Source of the DNA: an uncultured bacterium
Lineage (GTDB): Bacteria > Actinomycetota > Acidimicrobiia > Spongiisociales > ZC4RG35
DNA: 64,000 nucleotides
Reading direction: 5' to 3'
Assembly: GCA_963792365.1 (NCBI GenBank)
Contig: CAWBVW010000001.1
Location: forward strand, 359,312 to 423,311
This document shows, one piece after another, positions 1 through 63,878 of the stretch. The notes below the pieces were generated by a model, which saw only the letters and a program-made list of their open reading frames with translations, did no database searches and was not told the DNA's origin. Within the stretch, counting starts at the first letter, position 1. Every line of letters starts with the position of its first letter. The position numbers and the translations under genes are program-made.

Positions 1-361
1 AGCGACCTTCGCCGAAGCCACACACCCCGTGCAGACGCTCGCAATGCGGTTCACGGCCGGCGGTCACAGCATCGCTTACACAGGTGACACCGGCCCCGCC
101 GGCGACTGGACGACCGTCGCCGGCGACGCCGACCTCTTCCTATGTGAGGCGACCTTCGTGGGCACCCGAGACGACCACCCCTATCCTTATCATCTCAACG
201 CTTTCGAAGCCGGGCAGATCGCGGCGGCAAACGGCGTCGACCGCTTGGTTCTGACCCACATTCCGATCCACTGGGACCCGGCCCGATCGCTGAGCGAGGC
301 CGAAACCCACTTCGACGGTGATCTGGGGCTCGCCGAGCCCGGTGCCTCCTTCTCGATCTGA
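1..361 (+). CDS. MBL-fold metallo-hydrolase (RNase Z/ElaC-like), C-terminal fragment. The gene starts upstream of the window.
   Basis: The reading frame is open from position 2 with no upstream stop in the window. The C-terminal motif ...VDRLVLTHIPIHW matches the conserved LvLTHxS region of MBL-fold hydrolases. Confidence 0.45.
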   Translation, partial: ATFAEATHPVQTLAMRFTAGGHSIAYTGDTGPAGDWTTVAGDADLFLCEATFVGTRDDHPYPYHLNAFEAGQIAAANGVDRLVLTHIPIHWDPARSLSEAETHFDGDLGLAEPGASFSI

Positions 362-464
362 CTCCTACGACTTACGCGATCGGTCCCCAGGCCGACGGGA
401 ATCCCGATCAAGGACGACAGAACGACGCCCACGGACGTGGCGGTCACCCTCTCTTTGGGATGCC

Positions 465-1514
465 GTGAGCGAAGACAAGTCCCAGAAAACTGAAAAGGCG
501 ACGTCGAAGCGCCGCCGTGACGCCCGCCGCAAGGGTCAGATCCCCAAGTCGACGGAGATCGGGGTCGCCGCGTCGTTCGTCACTGCTCTGATCGCCCTGC
601 GGGCATTCGGTCCGGCCACCGTCCGGATCTTGTTCGAGGACGCCCGTCACATCATCGGCTCGGCCGGCTCGAATCCCAGTCTCGGCACGGTTGCAGGGGT
701 GGCGGGCACCATGTTTCTCGTGGGGGTCGCGCCGTTTGTCGGGATCGCAGCGATCGCCGGAACCGCCGGCGCCGTCGCCCAGGTCGGCTTCGTCCTCACG
801 CCGGAAGCCGCCAAGCCGAAACTGTCCAACCTCAACCCCAAACGCGGGCTCGACAAGCTCAAGCCGGCGACCGCAACCTGGGAACTCGCTCGCACCACCT
901 TGAAGCTGGGGCTCTTCATCGCACTCGCCTGGGGCCCGGTTGTCGACGGCATCACCGAGCTCGCCGCCGTCAGGACCCTCGACCGCGCGATCTCCGACGT
1001 GTCGGCGGTCACCTGGGACGTTCTCGTGAGAGCGGCCCTGCTGGCGCTGCTCATCGGGCTCTCCGACTACGCCTTCAATCGTTGGAAGATGACGAAGGGG
1101 ATGCGCATGTCGAAAGAGGAGATCAAGCAGGAGTACAAGACCAGCGAAGGCGACCCCCTCGTCAAGGGCCAGCGGCGTCGCCGAGCCGCCGAGATGAACC
1201 GGAATCGGCTCATCAACGTTGCATCCGCCGACGTGGTGGTGACCAACCCGACACATTTTGCCGTGGCGCTGAAGTACGACCGCACGGAGCCCGCTCCACG
1301 TGTGGTTGCCAAGGGCACGGATCGACATGCCAAGAAGATCCGGAGGATGGCGGCGAGGCACGGCGTACCGATGGTCGAGAACCGACCCCTTGCGCGCAGC
1401 CTGTTCCGGCGCGTGAAGGTGGGCGGGTACGTTCCCACCGCGCTGTTCGAAGCCACCGCCGTCGTCCTGGCCGAGGGGTACCGCCGCCGGGGTAGAAGGC
1501 CGAGCGCAGCATGA
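465..1514 (+). CDS. flhB: Flagellar export apparatus protein FlhB
   Basis: N-terminus from the GTG at 465 reads (M)SEDKSQKTEKATSKRRRDARRKGQIPKS, the classic FlhB start. The C-terminal domain carries the NPTH autocleavage motif (VVVTNPTHFAVALKY). The stop overlaps the flhA start (ATGA). The ORF track's start at 318 is probably too far upstream. Confidence 0.85.
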   Translation: MSEDKSQKTEKATSKRRRDARRKGQIPKSTEIGVAASFVTALIALRAFGPATVRILFEDARHIIGSAGSNPSLGTVAGVAGTMFLVGVAPFVGIAAIAGTAGAVAQVGFVLTPEAAKPKLSNLNPKRGLDKLKPATATWELARTTLKLGLFIALAWGPVVDGITELAAVRTLDRAISDVSAVTWDVLVRAALLALLIGLSDYAFNRWKMTKGMRMSKEEIKQEYKTSEGDPLVKGQRRRRAAEMNRNRLINVASADVVVTNPTHFAVALKYDRTEPAPRVVAKGTDRHAKKIRRMAARHGVPMVENRPLARSLFRRVKVGGYVPTALFEATAVVLAEGYRRRGRRPSAA

Positions 1515-3562
1515 GGCGCGGAGCGGGAGCCCAGATGTTGACCCCATTGCTGCTCGTGGGCGTGGTCCTGATGATGGTGGTGCCGATGCCACCAGTGATG
1601 CTCGACGTGATGCTGGCAGCGAACTTCACGCTGGCCATCCTTGCGCTCCTTGCCGCCATGCTGCTGAAGGATTCGCTCGAACTGTCGGTGTTCCCGTCGT
1701 TCCTTCTCGTCGCCACCCTCACACGGCTTGCACTCAACGTGTCGTCGACGCGGCTCATACTGCTCAACGGATACGCCGGAAAGGTGATCGACGCATTCGG
1801 AACCTTCGTCATCGGTGGATCCGTGGTGGTCGGCCTGGTCGTGTTCCTGATCCTGGTGATCATCCAATTCGTCGTCATCACGAATGGCGCCGGCCGGGTG
1901 GCTGAGGTCGCAGCTCGATTCACTCTCGACGCCATGCCCGGCAAGCAGATGGCGATCGACGCCGATCTCGGGTCGGGTCTGATCAACGAAGCCCAGGCGC
2001 GGGAGATGCGGGCCAAGATCGCCAAGGAGGCCGATTTCTACGGCGCCATGGACGGTGCGTCCAAGTTCGTCAAGGGTGACGCCATCGCCGGCGTCATCAT
2101 CACGTCGATCAACCTGATCGGTGGGATGGCGATCGGGCTCGGATCGGCCGGGCTGAGTTTTGGCGAAGCGGTCGACACGTACTCACGCCTCTCGGTCGGC
2201 GATGGCCTCGTCTCGCAGATCCCGGCGTTGCTGATCTCGATCGCCACCGGTCTTCTCGTGACCAGGGTCGGCTCGGACAACGCCATGGGTTCCGATCTCG
2301 CCCGTCAGGTGTTCGGAAACCCCGACGCCCTCAGGATCGGCTCCATCGTCGTAACCGGGATGGGCCTGTTGCCCGGGCTACCAAAGCTTCCCTTCTTCGG
2401 GATCGCTGCGCTGCTGTTCTTCCTCTCCACACGCGCCGGCACCAACCCCGACGACGAGATTCCTCTCGACGGCGAGCCCGAGATCCGCACCAGTCCCGAC
2501 GACCCCGAAGCTCTCATCGAACGGATGCGCCTCGAGCCCCTGGAGCTCCACCTCTCCCACGAAATCCTCGATCTGGTGGACCCCGAGCGCGGTGGCGACC
2601 TCATGGAACGCGTCAGATCGCTCCGCCGGCAGATCGCCGACGAGCTCGGAGTGGTCATCCCATTGCTGCGCGTGCGAGACGACGCCACGCTCCCCGAATC
2701 GGCCTACAACATCCTCCTGCGCGGGATCGAGGTCGGCTCCGGTGTCGCACCCCGCGACCAACTCCTGGCTCTTCCGATGGGCGACGGGTCGGACTTGCGG
2801 GCGATGGGCGGGTCACCGACCACTGAACCGGTCTTTGGACTGGAGGCGTTCTGGGTCCCGGACTCTGCCCGCAGCGCAGCCGCCGCCACCGGCGCCACCG
2901 TCGTCGATCGCTCATCGGCCGTGGTGACCCACCTCGCCGAGGTGGTGCGAACCAACGCCTCCCAGCTCCTGAGCCGGCAGGACGTGTCGATGCTGCTCGA
3001 GGGGCTTCGATATGACGAGCCCATCCTCGCCAACGAGGTCGGAACCGACCAGCTTCCGCTCCAGACCCTGCATGCGGTACTCCGGGCGCTCCTCGACGAA
3101 CGGGTGTCCATTCGTGACATCGGCCGGATCATCGAGGCCGTGGCGTCCAAGGCGACCGAAACGCGGTCGGTCGAGGCGCTCGTGGCTGCGGCGAGGGTGT
3201 CCCTGGGATCGGCCATCGTCGGCAAGATCGCACCGGGGGGCCGCCTCAAGCTCATCACGCTCGAACCCGCCCTCGAAGCTGCATATCACGAGGCAATCCG
3301 CGAAGTCGACGGGACATCGCATCTGGTGCTCGATCCGGGCAAGCTCGAACGCCTCAGAGCCGACACGACGGCCGCGTTGTCGGCGGTGTCCGGCGAGCCG
3401 TTGGCGCTGGTCTGCAGCCTGGCCCTGCGCAAGCCCCTCCACAGAACCCTCACATCACTCGGCGTGGACCTCCCCGTGGTGGCCTACCCCGAGCTTCCCG
3501 CGCACCTGGAACTGATCCCGATCGGAGTGATCGAACATGGCGAACCAACCCACGCTGTCTGA
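1511..3562 (+). CDS. flhA: Flagellar export apparatus protein FlhA
   Basis: 683 aa with an N-terminal multi-TM domain and the conserved FlhA stretch ...FTLDAMPGKQMAIDADL...KFVKGDAIAG..., plus a large cytoplasmic C-domain. Translationally coupled to flhB. Confidence 0.9.
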   Translation: MRRGAGAQMLTPLLLVGVVLMMVVPMPPVMLDVMLAANFTLAILALLAAMLLKDSLELSVFPSFLLVATLTRLALNVSSTRLILLNGYAGKVIDAFGTFVIGGSVVVGLVVFLILVIIQFVVITNGAGRVAEVAARFTLDAMPGKQMAIDADLGSGLINEAQAREMRAKIAKEADFYGAMDGASKFVKGDAIAGVIITSINLIGGMAIGLGSAGLSFGEAVDTYSRLSVGDGLVSQIPALLISIATGLLVTRVGSDNAMGSDLARQVFGNPDALRIGSIVVTGMGLLPGLPKLPFFGIAALLFFLSTRAGTNPDDEIPLDGEPEIRTSPDDPEALIERMRLEPLELHLSHEILDLVDPERGGDLMERVRSLRRQIADELGVVIPLLRVRDDATLPESAYNILLRGIEVGSGVAPRDQLLALPMGDGSDLRAMGGSPTTEPVFGLEAFWVPDSARSAAAATGATVVDRSSAVVTHLAEVVRTNASQLLSRQDVSMLLEGLRYDEPILANEVGTDQLPLQTLHAVLRALLDERVSIRDIGRIIEAVASKATETRSVEALVAAARVSLGSAIVGKIAPGGRLKLITLEPALEAAYHEAIREVDGTSHLVLDPGKLERLRADTTAALSAVSGEPLALVCSLALRKPLHRTLTSLGVDLPVVAYPELPAHLELIPIGVIEHGEPTHAV

Positions 3563-7730: not shown

Positions 7731-8180
7731 ATGACAACGGCACTGGCCTCTCCCACGTACTACGACCTGATCGGTCTCCTCGCCAACGAACGCCGACTCC
7801 TCGAGCGGCTTCTGTTCCGTCACGCCGAGATCTCGATGCTGATCGCCGCAGGCGAGCATCGATTCGTCGGCCGAGCCGTCGACGAGGCCCTCGAGGTCGA
7901 GGCCGAGCTCGCCGCATGTGATCTCACCAGGGCAATGATGCTCGTGGGGCTCACGCCTCGCGGTGACGACATGTCGATGGCCGAGCTCATCTCCGAGGCA
8001 CCCGCCGAGTTCCAGGCGCCCCTCGGCGATCTGACCCGCGACATGAAGCGAATCATGGCCCAGGTGGACAAATATCGTCGCGAGGCGGCAGCTTGGGCCG
8101 GCGAACGAGCCGAGCAGGTTCGCCAGGCCATCCAACGTTTTGGCGCCGATACCTACTTGGACGGTCGATTGGGGTCCTGA
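7731..8180 (+). CDS. FlgN-like flagellar chaperone family protein (paralog of flgN at 11184-11705)
   Basis: 149 aa. The block ERRLLERLLFRHAEISMLIAAGEHRFVGRAVDEALEVEAEL aligns with ERQLLEHLLFKLIEARLVLAADEARFLPQAMREVEAIVDRV of the flgN product. Convergent with csrA; the two 3' ends overlap by 28 nt. Confidence 0.5.
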   Translation: MTTALASPTYYDLIGLLANERRLLERLLFRHAEISMLIAAGEHRFVGRAVDEALEVEAELAACDLTRAMMLVGLTPRGDDMSMAELISEAPAEFQAPLGDLTRDMKRIMAQVDKYRREAAAWAGERAEQVRQAIQRFGADTYLDGRLGS

Positions 8181-9813: not shown

Positions 9814-11184
9814 TTACCTCCCAACGATGCCCATTCGATTGATCACAGTGTCGAGCGCCTGGTCGACGGTCGTGATGACCCTCGCCGCCGCCTCGTACAT
9901 CCGCTGGAACTCGATGAGACTCACCATTTCTTCATCAACTGACACGGCATGACTCGAGGACCTGGCGAGGTCGGCAGCCGACGAGAGACCGGCCTGCGTC
10001 TCCGACGACATGCGGGCGGTCGCCGATTCCTGTCCCAGGGCCGTCACAAACGTTCGATATGAATCCAGCAACGACTGCGTGCCACCGGATGCCGAAAGCG
10101 TCGATCGAAGATCGGACAGGCGTTGGGCGTTGGAGCCGTCGAAGGTGGGATACGGGGGTCCGGCCGACGATGCCGTCGCCACGTCGGCGGGCGCAGTGAT
10201 GACCACCCTGAAGGTGGTGGCGGGCGAACCGGCGTCGAACGTCACGAGCGGACCACCTGGAGCGCCGGCAGCCGTGAACCCGGCGGCGTGCGTGGTGTTC
10301 AAGGCATCGGTGAGATCTCTCACGAAGTCGTCGAGCCGCGTGATCATGGCCGGGACGTCCTCCGTGACCGAGAGCTGCAATCCGCGCAACTCACCGCCGG
10401 GGACCAGTGCAACGCCACTGGCATGAAGCACCTGCCCCGTGCCCTCATCGTAGGAGAGCGGACGGGAGGTGGACCCGTTCACGAGCGAGATACCGCCGAT
10501 CATCACCCTGGCGTTGCCATTGTCTTCGATAGCCACGCTGACACCTGCGAGCTCCGACAGACGGTCGAGCAGAATGTCACGTTGATCCATCAGATCGTTC
10601 GGCGAGCCGGGGGCGGTGGACGCGTCGAGGATCGCAACGTTCAGCTTCGCCACCTGATCCAAGGCGTTGTTGATCTCTTGGATGGTCGAACGAATCGAGA
10701 CCACGCCGTCCTGTCGAAGGGAGTTCAGTCCAGTACCCACAGCGGCTACTCGCCCGGTGAGCGCACCCAGTTGTTCGATGACGGCGACGCGGGAGGCTTC
10801 ATCGGACGGGTTCAGGGCCAGATCCTCGAAGGCGTCGAACACCGATCCGAGTTCTGCTGTGACGCCCATCTCAGGCTCGGCCAAGATCTGTTCGGCCCGG
10901 TCGAAGAACGACGCACGCGCTTCGATGTTGTTCCTCGCTGAGACACTCGACCGATACCGGGCGTCGAGAAAGGTGTCGCGCACCCGGTTGATGTCAGTCA
11001 CCTTCACTCCCAACCCGACCTGACCGTTGGGGGTCATACGGGGATACCGCGACGCCATGTCGACCCGCTGGCGCGTGTATCCGGCGGTGTTGGCGTTCGA
11101 CACATTGTGGCTGGCGGTGTCCATCGCGAGCTGGGCCGCTCGCAGTCCGCTGAGCGCAACATGCAGCGCCGAAAAATCCGCCAT
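9814..11184 (-). CDS. flgK: Flagellar hook-associated protein 1 FlgK
   Basis: 456 aa. N-terminus MADFSALHVALSGLRAAQLAMDTASHNVSNANTAGYTRQRV matches FlgK. The C-terminal flg rod/hook helix ...MVSLIEFQRMYEAAARVITTVDQALDTVI is present. Confidence 0.9.
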   Translation of the reverse strand: MADFSALHVALSGLRAAQLAMDTASHNVSNANTAGYTRQRVDMASRYPRMTPNGQVGLGVKVTDINRVRDTFLDARYRSSVSARNNIEARASFFDRAEQILAEPEMGVTAELGSVFDAFEDLALNPSDEASRVAVIEQLGALTGRVAAVGTGLNSLRQDGVVSIRSTIQEINNALDQVAKLNVAILDASTAPGSPNDLMDQRDILLDRLSELAGVSVAIEDNGNARVMIGGISLVNGSTSRPLSYDEGTGQVLHASGVALVPGGELRGLQLSVTEDVPAMITRLDDFVRDLTDALNTTHAAGFTAAGAPGGPLVTFDAGSPATTFRVVITAPADVATASSAGPPYPTFDGSNAQRLSDLRSTLSASGGTQSLLDSYRTFVTALGQESATARMSSETQAGLSSAADLARSSSHAVSVDEEMVSLIEFQRMYEAAARVITTVDQALDTVINRMGIVGR

Positions 11185-12377: not shown

Positions 12378-12465
12378 GTCTCGGACCGGTCGGCGCCCTT
12401 GGTCGGTGCCGGCACGAAGATGCAGCCACTTGAGGATCGGCGGCCGCGGCCGACAGGATGCCTCG

Positions 12466-12711
12466 ATGATCAGATTGCACCGCATCCGTGGCGAGGAGTT
12501 CTTCCTCAATGCCGACCTGGTCGAGAGCGTGGAGAACACGCCCGACACGGTCCTCACGCTCTTCGACGGGCGCAAGATCGTGGTTCACGAGAGCGCCGAA
12601 GAGGTGGCTGAGCTCATCACCACGTACCGAGCATCGGTGTTGCGTCTCGCCGACGCCGTTCGAGGTGGCGAGAGGAACCTGGTTGCGTTCCCCGGCGGAC
12701 GCGAAGACTGA
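12466..12711 (+). CDS. flbD: Flagellar protein FlbD
   Basis: 81 aa from the ATG at 12466. MIRLHRIRGEEFFLNADLVESVENTPDTVLTLFDGRKIVVHESAEEVAELI closely matches FlbD (MIKLTRLNGEEFYLNAELIE..TPDTVITL.NGKKY.V.ES.EEV). Confidence 0.75.
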   Translation: MIRLHRIRGEEFFLNADLVESVENTPDTVLTLFDGRKIVVHESAEEVAELITTYRASVLRLADAVRGGERNLVAFPGGRED

Positions 12712-17506: not shown

Positions 17507-17836
17507 TCACCACTCCTCGACTGGCTCCTGCTGCTCCAGCCACTGCGCATCCATGCGAGCACGCATGTCGCGGTAGGAGTCGCGTCGCTTCCAGAACTTC
17601 GTCTTCCAGACCTTGAAGCGCCTGCTCTGAACGGGCAGCTGTTCGAGCGGCTCGTGTTCGTGGGTCCGCTTCACCTGCGGCAATGGGTCTAGCTCATCGG
17701 GATCCGAAAGAGTGTGCAACATCTGGTTTGCGGTGTGGCGAGCACGACGGTGCTCGAGCCTGCGCTCTTCACGGCTTGGACGGACGTCGTCGTAGCCGCG
17801 GTTGACGGTGCGGTTTTCACGGGATCGGCGGGCCAT
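17507..17836 (-). CDS. Hypothetical basic protein (~110 aa)
   Basis: ORF from ATG at 17836 (MARRSRENRTVN...). Highly charged (KVWKTKFWKRRDSYRDMRARMDAQW); no recognisable domain. Confidence 0.3.
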   Translation of the reverse strand: MARRSRENRTVNRGYDDVRPSREERRLEHRRARHTANQMLHTLSDPDELDPLPQVKRTHEHEPLEQLPVQSRRFKVWKTKFWKRRDSYRDMRARMDAQWLEQQEPVEEW

Positions 17837-17958
17837 GGACACTCCTGGGATCGACGTTGGTGGACCTGGTCGACGGTCACTCGATCGGAGGAGCTCGCTC
17901 CATCTCTGACAACGTACCACTTCCGCTCACCGTATGAAGGGTCCATCGTCACCGGCTG

Positions 17959-18010
17959 CCCCCGGACCGGTTTTCGCGCACAAAAGGTGCGTGAATACGC
18001 ACCTTTTGTG
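17959..18010. repeat. Perfect 24-bp inverted repeat with a 4-nt loop (GGTTTTCGCGCACAAAAGGTGCGT-gaat-ACGCACCTTTTGTGCGCGAAAACC)
   Basis: Read directly from the sequence. The right arm is the exact reverse complement of the left arm. Lies in the 110-bp gap between two minus-strand genes. Confidence 0.9.
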
Positions 18011-18030
18011 CGCGAAAACCCGTGTCTGGG

Positions 18031-26820: not shown

Positions 26821-27861
26821 AGTGGCGAGGTCCGCGAACAGGTCGGCCAACAGGAGTTGGGGGCGGAGATTGGCCTCGAGGTCGATGACCGCCCCCATGA
26901 CGCGCTCGGCGCGTTCCACTGCGAGCCGGGGCGTCACCGTGGTGAGCGTGGCCACGGGGATGTCTCGGTTGCGCATTGGACCACCTAGCTGCACGGCCGC
27001 TGCGTCCAGATACCAGGACGCGATCAGCTCCAGCCCCGTGGAGAGCAGAGACTGGCGCGCCCGGCGGCGAGCCCGGTCAGCCTCCTCCTTGGAGAGGTCG
27101 CCGCCGACGCCCTCGAGCAACGGGTCGACCGACTCGATCATCTCGGCGGCGAGGCGGAACGCTTCCCCCGGACGGGCCGAGGCTCTCAGCGGCACCGACA
27201 ACCACGCCCTTCTGAACCCCGAGATCTCAGGGCTGGCCAGCACGGAGAAGGCCAGTCCTGGCCGACCACCGGCGAGCCCGGCGAGAACCTCGGCGTGTGT
27301 CCCATCGACGCCCCGTTCGGTGAGCGCCGCCGTGAGCACGTGGTCGGCCACTCGCCCGAAATGGACGGTACGGCAACGGCTCGCAACGGTTGACGGAAGC
27401 TGGTCCTCGAACTCGACGACGAGAATGAACACTGTGCTGACAGTCGGCTCTTCCAGCGTCTTCAGCAGGGCGTTCGCCGCCTGATCGGTCATCGAGCCCG
27501 CATCCTCGATCAAGAACACCTTGCGTGAGGCCTCGACCGGGCTCATCGAAGCCTGATGGATCGTGGCACGCGCCTGATCGACACCGAGACTCTGGCGGCC
27601 TTCGGGCTCCACCAGGATGATGTCCGGATGGGCGCCGGAGAGCACCCGACGACAGGATCGACACTCGTCCTCGTGCGCTCCGCCCGCGGGACACAGCAGC
27701 ATCGCCGCAAACCGCCTGGCAACCACGGCCTTGCCCACACCTGCCGCCCCTGTGAAGAGGTAGGCGTTTGCGGGTGCCGGAGCCTCTCTGACCAGCAACT
27801 CCAGAACGCGCTCGTGACCGACGACGTCCCCGAACAGCTTCAGCTGCGCAGACTCGGTCAT
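26812..27861 (-). CDS. holB: DNA polymerase III subunit delta-prime
   Basis: 349 aa. AAA+ clamp-loader motifs (...YLFTGAAGVGKAVVARRFAAMLLC..., the Zn module CRSCRRV, SRC-like ...TVASRCRTVHF). Confidence 0.85.
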   Translation of the reverse strand: MTESAQLKLFGDVVGHERVLELLVREAPAPANAYLFTGAAGVGKAVVARRFAAMLLCPAGGAHEDECRSCRRVLSGAHPDIILVEPEGRQSLGVDQARATIHQASMSPVEASRKVFLIEDAGSMTDQAANALLKTLEEPTVSTVFILVVEFEDQLPSTVASRCRTVHFGRVADHVLTAALTERGVDGTHAEVLAGLAGGRPGLAFSVLASPEISGFRRAWLSVPLRASARPGEAFRLAAEMIESVDPLLEGVGGDLSKEEADRARRRARQSLLSTGLELIASWYLDAAAVQLGGPMRNRDIPVATLTTVTPRLAVERAERVMGAVIDLEANLRPQLLLADLFADLATNT

Positions 27862-62796: not shown

Positions 62797-63816
62797 ATGA
62801 GGAGAGCCGTGCCTTACCGAGCTGAATACATCTGGATCGATGGATCCGAGCCGACGCAGCGACTGCGATCGAAGACCAAAATCGTTCCCGACCAGGCCGA
62901 ACCACCCATCTGGGGCTTCGACGGTTCGTCCACGAACCAAGCCCCGGGCAACCAGTCGGACTGTGTGCTGCAACCCGTGAGGGTGGTGCCAGACCCGATA
63001 CGTGGCAACGACGACGTCCTCGTTCTCTGCGAAGTGCTGACCGTCGACATGGAGGTCCATCCATCGAACACCCGGGCCTCGTGTCGCGCGGTGGCGGAGA
63101 AGTACGCCAGCTACGAGTCGTGGTTCGGCATCGAGCAGGAATACACGTTCTTCAAGGACGGACGCCCGTACGGGTTCCCGATGGGAGGCTATCCCGCACC
63201 ACAGGGTGGCTACTACTGCGGTGTGGGCTGGGACGAGATCTTCGGGCGTGAGGTCGTGGAGAACCACACGGCGTATTGCCTGGAGGCAGGGCTCTCGATC
63301 TCCGGCACCAATGCCGAAGTGATGATCGGACAGTGGGAGTTCCAGATCGGACCCGCCGGCCCGGTCGAGGCGTCGGACGAAATCTGGCTGGCCCGGTGGC
63401 TCTTGTATCGAGCTGCCGAGGACTACGGCATCTCTGCCCATCTCGATCCGAAGCCTGTGAAGGGCGACTGGAACGGGGCCGGGGCCCACACCAACTACTC
63501 GACCAACGAGATGCGGGAGAGCTACGACCCGATCGTGGCGGCTTGCGAGGCCCTCGGGAAGCGCCATGACGTCCACATCACCAACTATGGCGCCGAGATC
63601 GAGCATCGGCTGACCGGTCTCCACGAGACTGCGCCCTGGACGCACTACTCATACGGCGTGTCGGACCGAGGCGCTTCGGTCCGGATTCCGTGGCAGTGCG
63701 CCAAAGACGGAAAGGGCTACCTCGAGGATCGTCGCCCCAACGCCAACATGGATCCGTATGTCGTGACCAAGCTCATCACCGAGACGGTGTGTGGTTCTGC
63801 CGCCGGCGACCTCTGA
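62797..63816 (+). CDS. glnII: Glutamine synthetase type II (eukaryote-like GSII)
   Basis: 339 aa. ...YIWIDGSEP...WGFDGSSTNQAPG...WFGIEQEYTFF...GGYYCGVG...GTNAEVMIGQWEFQIGP...KGDWNGAGAHTNYST...YLEDRRPNANMDPY are GSII signatures. Confidence 0.9.
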   Translation: MRRAVPYRAEYIWIDGSEPTQRLRSKTKIVPDQAEPPIWGFDGSSTNQAPGNQSDCVLQPVRVVPDPIRGNDDVLVLCEVLTVDMEVHPSNTRASCRAVAEKYASYESWFGIEQEYTFFKDGRPYGFPMGGYPAPQGGYYCGVGWDEIFGREVVENHTAYCLEAGLSISGTNAEVMIGQWEFQIGPAGPVEASDEIWLARWLLYRAAEDYGISAHLDPKPVKGDWNGAGAHTNYSTNEMRESYDPIVAACEALGKRHDVHITNYGAEIEHRLTGLHETAPWTHYSYGVSDRGASVRIPWQCAKDGKGYLEDRRPNANMDPYVVTKLITETVCGSAAGDL

Positions 63817-63841
63817 CTCTCGAGCGACCCAGGTATCGGTT

Positions 63842-63873
63842 GAAGTGGCCCCGCCTGCCGGCGGGGCCACTTC
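63842..63873. terminator. GC-rich hairpin (14-bp perfect stem GAAGTGGCCCCGCC/GGCGGGGCCACTTC, loop TGCC) between glnII and a convergent downstream gene. Likely a bidirectional intrinsic terminator.
   Basis: Read directly. 26 nt after the glnII stop. Followed by AGTTGTC, a weak U-tract, as is common in high-GC actinobacteria. Confidence 0.55.
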
Positions 63874-63878
63874 AGTTG

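Follow-up and report, generated by a model that had tools for sequence, protein, structure and literature searches.

The window considered here, the whole stretch of 64,000 nucleotides (nt), comes from an uncultured bacterium, and the names of its homologues place the lineage in Acidimicrobiia. The subject of this account is a perfectly palindromic element that follows folK in the window, together with its copies at other loci and in related genomes. The folK gene is fused to a methyltransferase gene and is the last gene of a folP–unknown–folB–folK run, or operon. Its stop codon (18031–18033) is 10 nt from the perfect stem of the element and 7 nt from the extended stem. A small open reading frame (ORF) lies on the other side, and both neighbours are encoded on the minus strand. 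The original prediction had put the hairpin between the end of the folate operon (stop at 18031) and a gene for a small basic protein, which is confirmed. The features of the locus are as follows.

17507 to 17836, minus strand: conserved basic ORF of 109 amino acids without a Pfam family; its ATG, at 17836, lies 132 nt past the hairpin.
17960 to 18030, no strand: extended element of about 71 nt, comprising the core and the partly complementary outer flanks CCCCGGAC...GTGTCTGGG; delimited by the alignment, the direct repeats of relative L004 and blastn.
17969 to 17992, no strand: left arm GGTTTTCGCGCACAAAAGGTGCGT, which holds the mini-palindrome CGCAC-AAAAG-GTGCG and alone folds as a DNA hairpin at -5.6 kcal/mol.
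17979 to 18003, minus strand: terminator-like module on the folK messenger RNA (mRNA), a 7-bp stem GGUGCGU-AUUC-ACGCACC (18003 to 17986) followed by UUUUGUG (17985 to 17979).
17986 to 18010, plus strand: the same module, GGUGCGU-GAAU-ACGCACC, followed by UUUUGUG (18004 to 18010).
17993 to 17996, no strand: loop GAAT, which is AUUC on the folK mRNA strand.
17997 to 18020, no strand: right arm ACGCACCTTTTGTGCGCGAAAACC, the exact reverse complement of the left arm.
18031 to 18984, minus strand: folK (HPPK) fused to a PEMT/ICMT-like membrane methyltransferase (Pfam PF01288, 6.6e-38; PF04191, 9e-8).

The palindrome, GGTTTTCGCGCACAAAAGGTGCGT-GAAT-ACGCACCTTTTGTGCGCGAAAACC, occupies 17969–18020, where its arms form an inverted repeat of 24 bp without a single mismatch around a loop of 4 nt. 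The original prediction had its sequence and symmetry right but placed it at 17959–18010, 10 bases too far to the left. When imperfect pairing is allowed, the stem reaches 27 bp with 96% complementarity at 17966–18023. Given the base composition of the window, the expected number of perfect 24-bp inverted repeats with loops of 3–10 nt in 64 kb is 1.3e-8, which bears out the earlier view that such a stem is improbable by chance; the sole other perfect inverted repeat of at least 11 bp in the 64 kb is one of 15 bp at 63841–63874. When 60-nt segments are folded along the window, none is more stable than that of the palindrome, whose -46.1 kcal/mol compares with an average of -18.3 (standard deviation 4.8), and the 52-mer has a folding energy of -43.7 kcal/mol as RNA and -32.6 kcal/mol as DNA (z of about -11 to -12 against shuffles). 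The GC content is 51.9% for the palindromic element and 64.8% for the window, the latter below the value of about 70% assumed at first. The hairpin is thus a real feature beyond chance.

The element recurs outside the window. A 20-mer from the arm, scanned against one genome per prokaryotic species, gave three matches, all in the single metagenome-assembled genome (MAG) CAWATW01 (MFD09779.bin.1.206) and on three different contigs; the three full hairpins, each about 53 nt long, are almost identical to that of the window and lie in different intergenic contexts. The family tally comes to nine copies at five independent positions (window, L001, L002, L003, L004a, L004b, L006, L008 and L013), all of which are recovered both by an nhmmer profile and by a covariance model. 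The search for further copies of the 24-mer that had been suggested with the original prediction is therefore positive, with near-identical copies at unrelated intergenic loci of related genomes and a single one in the window. The copies at loci other than folK are placed as follows.

L001: between tandem genes, 10 nt after the stop of an ABC-2 permease and 44 nt before the start of a dehydrogenase E1-alpha gene.
L002: between convergent genes, adjoining a second GC-rich hairpin.
L003: between a GABA-type aminotransferase gene and an NAPRTase gene with divergent starts.
L008: orthologous to L003 (aminotransferase 93% identical in amino acids); 21 nt separate the end of the hairpin from the start codon of NAPRTase.

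All nine copies are intergenic, and all types of intergenic context are represented: three of the five independent positions are at gene ends, and two are between divergent starts (L003/L008, and L004b between padR and the small ORF). Since the identity between loci runs through the loop, the copies would descend by duplication or transposition from one source sequence. These copies bear directly on the reading of the hairpin as a one-off feature of the folate-operon RNA, such as an attenuator or processing site, or as an assembly artefact. The presence of a single copy in the 64-kb window would agree with it, but copies occupy four other unrelated positions, and the element is found in four independent assemblies, one of them short-read, which renders this reading hardly credible. 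The attenuator or processing hairpin offered by the original prediction is accordingly disfavoured as a locus-specific feature, because the element is multi-locus.

The distribution of the family is narrow, as searches of wider collections gave no true match. The two-arm gapped pattern had no match in the JGI metagenomes, the element none in an IMG/VR scan, and blastn none in plasmid and phage collections. With the 22-mer arm, the JGI metagenomes yielded one match; it comprises one arm within a lolE-like coding sequence, forms no palindrome and was dismissed as due to chance. Within the 64-kb window, no second copy was found by an arm search allowing 3 mismatches, by the nhmmer profile or by the covariance model. 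Rfam, at gathering and permissive thresholds, returned only tRNA and chance-level miRNA matches and no family for the element, and comparison of four open-frame translations of the element with the protein database gave no candidates for ORFs running through copies. Taking the copies, their placement and this distribution together, we consider it probable, at roughly 60%, that the hairpin is one copy of a low-copy, lineage-restricted palindromic repeat family in an uncultured soil Acidimicrobiia clade, which resembles the repetitive extragenic palindromic (REP) sequences and their doublets (REPINs), or the TRIT motif of mycobacteria.

At the folK locus itself, the relatives differ in whether they carry the element and an adjacent gene pair, which consists of a PadR regulator and a membrane protein with a HAAS domain. 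They are listed here by nucleotide identity to the window (L006, L004) or by folK identity.

L006, 98.8% nucleotide identity: orthologous copy 7–10 nt after the folK stop.
L004, about 92.5% nucleotide identity: two copies, as 70/71-nt direct repeats at 10963–11033 and 12431–12500.
L013, folK 76% identical in amino acids: a diverged perfect palindrome, TTTTCACGCACAAAAGGTCGCA-TAT-TGCGACCTTTTGTGCGTGAAAA, right after the folK stop, with a convergent HAAS gene next.
L011 (75%) and L005 (61%): neither the PadR–HAAS pair nor the element, with unrelated weaker hairpins only.
L014 and L015, 69%: a convergent HAAS–PadR pair 15 nt after folK and no element.
L012, 69%: at most a remnant of the element.

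Conservation in relatives, which had been proposed as a check, is thus partial: the element is kept in L004, L006 and L013 and is absent from relatives at 75%, 69% and 61%. L013 is a k141-named contig and is taken as a MEGAHIT short-read assembly. In L012, a candidate half-element remnant, CTTGTGCGCGAGAAC-GGGG-GTTCGGGCGCAC, reached an nhmmer E-value of 1.6 and was not relied on. The distance from the folK stop to a copy is 7–10 nt in the window, L004 and L006, and the element stands between convergent genes in L002, L004a and L013.

The direct repeats of L004 bracket a 1.4-kb segment with the PadR regulator and the HAAS-domain membrane protein on the opposite strand. Each repeat comprises the core from its first arm and a further 16 nt past the core on the side of the small ORF, and falls short of the outer flank on the folK side; blastn places positions 17953–18019 of the window on both of them. 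Partly complementary outer flanks, CCC(C)G(G)AC to one side of the core and GTC...GGG to the other, are likewise common to copies at unrelated loci. Because of these shared flanks and of the 16 nt by which the L004 direct repeat outruns the core, the repeat unit, as judged from the aligned sequences, is about 71–75 nt long, with the perfect 52-nt stem as its core.

The PadR–HAAS pair is found downstream of folK in relatives at 94%, 76% and 69% folK identity, and is therefore older than the lineage of the window. The window and L006 possess exactly one copy of the element and no PadR–HAAS pair. The simplest history is that both lost the pair by recombination between direct copies of the element, with one copy left behind. 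The same observations could be read as a recombination site for gene cassettes, i.e., an attC- or dif-like hairpin at which modules such as PadR–HAAS insert or excise; the bounding of the 1.4-kb L004 segment by 70/71-nt direct repeats, the single copy without the pair in the window and L006, and the extrahelical bases of fixed polarity in the copies (described below) are in keeping with this. However, the pair is ancestral, and ordinary homologous deletion between 70-nt repeats explains the state of the window; moreover, no integrase or recombinase is encoded near the folK locus, the end motifs GTTTTC...GAAAAC are opposite in order to the attC core sites, and only a single such case was seen. 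A cassette site is thus very doubtful.

The gene pair shows further peculiarities. It is convergent to folK in some relatives only (L004 10907–12351, minus strand; L014 2623–3878, minus strand; L013 1328–1681, minus strand). The homology of the L004 HAAS protein to that of L014 ends at residue 252, and thus the L004 gene is frameshifted or a pseudogene; its ORF continues through the palindrome. Upstream of padR in L004, at about 12385–12410, is a palindrome, GTAATACGTACTACGTAGTACCAC, that is related to a heptamer repeat in the window (see below) and may represent the PadR operator.

The hairpin is retained where the sequence is not. Every copy is predicted to fold into the same long stem, with z of -3.3 to -8.5 when each copy and its flanks are compared with shuffled versions. 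In an alignment of eight copies, 93.5% of the cells are paired and three pairs have changed on both sides. Between L008 and its ortholog L003, TTTTCGCGCAC is replaced by TTTTGGTGCAC and GTGCGCGAAAA by GTGCACCAAAA, so that two stem positions differ on both sides and no pair is broken. Between L013 and the window, five pairs have changed on both sides (G-C to A-T; GCGT/ACGC to CGCA/TGCG), one has become a wobble, and none of 23 is broken; these changes were counted by hand, MAFFT having misaligned the centre of L013. These orthologues, which are the informative cases, show that the palindrome itself has persisted through considerable divergence, and conservation of pairing alone falls short of proving selection on an RNA.

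The arms also invite a reading as a protein-binding site, either the operator of a dimeric or tetrameric DNA-binding protein or the site of a termination factor that binds double-stranded RNA, in control of a few loci. The 15-mer GTTTTCGCGCACAAA is invariant in all eight arms of the first four copies, the low copy number would suit a small regulon, two copies lie in divergent promoter regions, and the authors of the TRIT study suggested a factor that binds conserved double-stranded RNA (PMC3152330). Against this, the identity covers all 52 nt including the loop, which is more than binding needs and speaks for common descent, and orthologues alter their arms at different positions in each lineage with pairing kept. 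Most copies are located downstream of genes rather than upstream, and the neighbouring genes have no common functional theme. A binding site is therefore improbable, and the long operator for a dimeric regulator put forward in the original prediction fares poorly, since the identity between copies spans the loop and orthologues change the sequence while preserving the pairing.

The palindrome also bears marks of its own turnover. Hairpin-templated template switching homogenises the arms of inverted repeats and inverts their spacers without any need for selection (PMC8604942, PMC7202029). Both signatures are present, namely perfect arms in the window and L013 copies and an inverted loop. On the folK sense strand, the loop reads GAATAG in L004, AUUC in the window and CUAUUC in L006, an inversion between L004 and the other two despite collinear flanks. 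The flawless symmetry of the window would then be a derived state, produced by homogenisation of the arms through template switching during replication of a quasi-palindrome. Alternatively, flawless symmetry may be the true state, mis-called in the long-read assemblies of the relatives.

This alternative derives from an asymmetry among the copies. All seven long-read copies, from two assemblies, share one polarity, with a short 5' arm (CACAAA-GTGCG), a loop of GAATA plus one variable base and a full 3' arm, and in all seven a 2-nt bulge of fixed polarity is present. The two perfect copies, those of the window and L013, come from assemblies other than the two long-read ones. The latter are Microflora Danica Nanopore data (PMC12313526), and Nanopore base-calling degrades in inverted repeats (PMC7229812). 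Frameshifted genes occur in the long-read assemblies as well (FtsH and TilS in L006, NAPRTase in L010, HAAS in L004). The bulge may thus be biological or a consensus artefact; if both arms truly read CACAAAAGG, the 2-nt bulge and the extra loop base would be consensus artefacts (cf. PMC7229812). The inversion of the loop is real in either case. Additionally, two short-read contigs of a relative at 90% identity (P0002) end 36–37 nt after the folK stop, which suggests that they break off near the position of the palindrome centre in the window. The element thus carries a warning for assembly: short-read contigs of a close relative stop at about the presumed centre of the palindrome, and long-read assemblies may mis-call one arm. 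Over positions 8030–28910 of the window, the comparison with L006 yields 159 mismatches and 56 gap openings in 21 kb, and gene calls in L006 are split or missing, with FtsH at 480 instead of 642 amino acids and TilS absent; the gap openings together with these gene calls indicate indel errors in the long-read assembly of L006.

The layout of the inner stem is that of a terminator. On the folK mRNA, the order is ACAAAA, GGUGCGU, AUUC, ACGCACC and UUUUGUG, and it is equivalent on the opposite strand. The inner 7-bp stem, with five G-C pairs, has a folding energy of -10.3 kcal/mol, or -19.6 kcal/mol when pairing of the A/U tracts is included. The original prediction stated that the hairpin lacks a U-tract and is no textbook intrinsic terminator; this is true of the full stem of 24–27 bp, which on the folK strand is followed by CCGGUCCGG with no U-tract after the completed stem, but the inner 7-bp stem directly precedes UUUUGUG on both strands. 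As the stem runs at least 10 bp past the A/U tracts (CGCG and GGUUUU/AAAACC), the completed hairpin has no free U-tail. A consensus terminator scan of the window did not call the palindrome site. Judged by its sequence, the inner module has the layout of a bidirectional intrinsic terminator, and the element probably ends or stabilises the folate-operon transcript.

Based on this layout, we propose the following course of events. Transcription would place the element at the 3' end of the folate-operon mRNA. When RNA polymerase moves past the loop, the inner GC-rich 7-bp stem would form directly ahead of UUUUGUG, and the two could stop transcription in either direction. Any read-through RNA would close at least 10 further pairs to give the full stem of -44 kcal/mol, which should block 3'-to-5' exonucleases and insulate the downstream small ORF. 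The ancestral setting of the folK copy was presumably between the convergent folK and HAAS genes, where a two-way terminator would make sense. Liang and Deutscher reported that, in Escherichia coli, terminating ribosomes can be impeded by a REP stem no more than about 15 nt away from a stop codon, and by analogy the same may occur at the distance of 7–10 nt seen here. Roles of REPs in transcription termination and mRNA stabilisation are put forward as hypotheses in PMC3733652, where a block to exonucleases by REP elements is likewise proposed.

Two other hairpins at gene ends were observed. The second-best hairpin of the window, at 63841–63874, is a perfect 15-bp GC-rich stem, TGAAGTGGCCCCGCC-TGCC-GGCGGGGCCACTTCA, followed by GTTGTC; it sits 24 nt after a glutamine-synthetase-like ORF (62797–63816, plus strand) and is likely a terminator without a clean U-tract, from which long GC stems may be the usual gene-end signal of this genome. 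At L002, a separate 13-bp GC hairpin, GCCGACCCCCGGG-TCGTC-CCCGGGGGTCGGC (3523–3555), lies directly beside the family element between the convergent genes, and thus each of these genes may have its own stop signal.

Several observations weigh against the reading as a REP-like repeat family with a role at gene ends. The number of copies is low: one in 64 kb, only three exact-arm matches in a whole species-representative MAG and no extra copies in a profile and covariance scan of about 191 kb of sequence, whereas classical REP families number tens to hundreds. The covariation on eight sequences is weak, as 43 of 500 shuffles reach the observed score, the shuffle control itself being weak because most alignment columns never vary; furthermore, compensatory changes in a palindrome can come from hairpin-templated repair in the absence of selection. 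An efficient two-way terminator would be harmful in divergent promoter regions, and these hold two of the five independent positions. By eye, the aligned flanks contain no GTAG tag, and no copy has a target-site duplication or flanking direct repeats. CGTC/GACG stands beside the core in L001, L004a/b and L006 only, and not at the right flank of the window or in L002, L003 and L013. The gene tables of the locus flanks (about 0.2 Mb) list no transposase and no Y1_Tnp. The family thus behaves like a dispersed repeat with landing sites in every sort of intergenic DNA, some of its copies being well placed as terminators.

The question of mobility leads to a stricter version, in which the element is a REPIN mobilised by a REP-associated tyrosine transposase (RAYT). 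In this case, the element would consist of two REP units in inverted orientation, with a tag and a small palindrome in each arm, and would be non-autonomous. An IS200/IS605-like tyrosine transposase, present as a single-copy gene elsewhere in the genome, would move it in single-stranded form, and any effects of the element on transcription would be incidental. The inverted-doublet architecture with a short spacer corresponds to the REPIN definition (PMC3116915), each arm has its own 5–6 bp mini-hairpin (GCGCAC-AAAAG-GTGCGC), all copies are extragenic and cover every type of intergenic context, and near-identity within a genome goes with compensatory divergence between genomes. The 2-nt bulge of fixed polarity in the seven long-read copies would suit strand-specific recognition of single-stranded DNA, but it may be an assembly artefact. 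The low copy number, the lack of a GTAG tag and the lack of any RAYT within the roughly 0.2 Mb inspected also count against it. To our knowledge, no REP–RAYT system has been reported for the phylum Actinobacteria. A literature search on REP, RAYT and Actinobacteria found no paper, and PMC3733652, which gives GTAG as characteristic, contains no mention of Actinobacteria. On balance, we regard a strict RAYT-type REPIN as unlikely, if worth keeping in view. A bolder proposal is that the polar, bulge-marked hairpin is recognised strand-specifically by a dedicated Acidimicrobiia factor, which would make it both a mobile unit and a portable two-way terminator that drives the gain and loss of modules of the PadR–HAAS type; such a factor might be either a transposase or recombinase of a new type that acts on single-stranded DNA, or a termination factor that binds double-stranded RNA. 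We consider this a long shot.

With respect to the neighbouring genes, the folK–PEMT fusion of about 317 amino acids is conserved in many Acidimicrobiia down to about 40% identity, and the other matches are stand-alone HPPKs of about 188 amino acids. The small ORF is predicted as a gene in L004, L005 and L006. It is Arg-rich, with 109–110 amino acids (MARRSRENRT...) and no Pfam or NCBIfam family (window 17507–17968, minus strand; L004 12487–12945; L005 11100–11572). Even in the 61% relative, parts of its roughly 130-nt leader are conserved, e.g., CTCCTCCGATCGAGTGACC and the stretch preceding the ATG. Elsewhere in the window, a segment of about 125 bp with tRNA-Thr(CGT) (26629–26753; tRNA 26681–26753, plus strand) is inverted in the 92.5%-identical L004 (2021–2147), where the flanks are otherwise collinear and the adjoining spacers differ from those of the window. 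The heptamer tandem repeat (ACGTATT)x4 lies at 26789–26822, just 3' of the tRNA-Thr gene. Flagellar genes of this Acidimicrobiia genome include FlhB and FlhA, as well as FlbD, FlgN, FlgK, flagellin, FliW and CsrA (window 318–3562, plus strand; L006 16273–20831).

With this element, Acidimicrobiia gain a family of dispersed palindromic repeats. Knowledge of the class comes almost entirely from metagenomes, and the literature search found no report of such a family in it, including none of REPs. This one small case displays three textbook behaviours of palindromes, i.e., compensatory evolution of the arms, inversion of the loop and deletion of a gene pair between copies. In practical terms, the element marks a probable operon boundary after folK and is useful as a strain-level marker. 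It is a known kind of element forming a new family in a poorly known lineage, and it opens no long-standing question.

Comparison with known systems first sets aside two classes. Integron attC sites are imperfect palindromes with RYYYAAC...GTTRRRY ends, adjacent cassettes and an IntI integrase. The present element has its ends, GTTTTC...GAAAAC, in the opposite order, and no integrase in its flanks. Miniature inverted-repeat transposable elements (MITEs), such as the Correia elements of Neisseria, resemble the element in being small, non-coding repeats that lie between genes, form hairpins and can serve as terminators or as substrates of recombination. Unlike MITEs, the element has no internal segment between terminal inverted repeats, only a loop of 4–5 nt between the arms, and neither a target-site duplication nor flanking direct repeats at any copy; it is also much shorter (52–75 nt). 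Of the three alternatives in the original prediction, the MITE- or REP-like one came closest in view of the multi-locus copies, while its notion of a remnant terminal-inverted-repeat pair was mistaken, as the element is all palindrome with a 4–5 nt loop. With canonical bidirectional intrinsic terminators, it shares the inner ACAAAA-GGUGCGU-loop-ACGCACC-UUUUGUG on both strands and the position just after a stop codon; it differs from these, and from the long-stem terminators of high-GC actinomycetes, in a stem that continues at least 10 bp beyond the A/U tracts.

The closest actinobacterial analogue is TRIT, a palindromic, sequence-conserved, bidirectional terminator motif with 147 copies in Mycobacterium tuberculosis that is found only in Mycobacterium (PMC3152330). 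Like TRIT as described there, the element is actinobacterial, lineage-restricted, conserved in sequence and structure, palindromic and hence bidirectional, located near stop codons and devoid of a classical trailing U-tract (PMC3152330). However, TRIT usually starts inside the coding sequence near position -8, while the element starts 7–10 nt after the stop; the sequence appears to be different, no Rfam family matches the element, the host is Acidimicrobiia, the 147 copies contrast with the handful seen here, and two of the five positions are away from gene ends. The resemblance, judged by description, would thus be functional only.

REP/REPIN elements, which occur in Proteobacteria and some other phyla, are the closest known match. 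A GTAG (or CGTC) tetranucleotide at the end of the unit is given as characteristic of REPs in PMC3733652; the element has no GTAG and no consistent CGTC. The spacer is 4–5 nt in the element and tens of nt in REPINs, and its apparent handful of copies compares with tens to hundreds. REPINs are inverted REP doublets that form hairpins with compensatory changes (PMC3116915), and this architecture is found here: the arms are exact inverted copies, each has its own mini-hairpin of 5–6 bp (-5.6 to -7.4 kcal/mol), and the full hairpin is predicted in every copy. The element shares with REPs and REPINs their nature as short dispersed extragenic palindromes, the inverted doublet, whose single-stranded DNA or mRNA forms a long hairpin, the compensatory stem changes, the vertical inheritance at fixed loci and the homogeneity within a genome (PMC3116915, PMC3337134).

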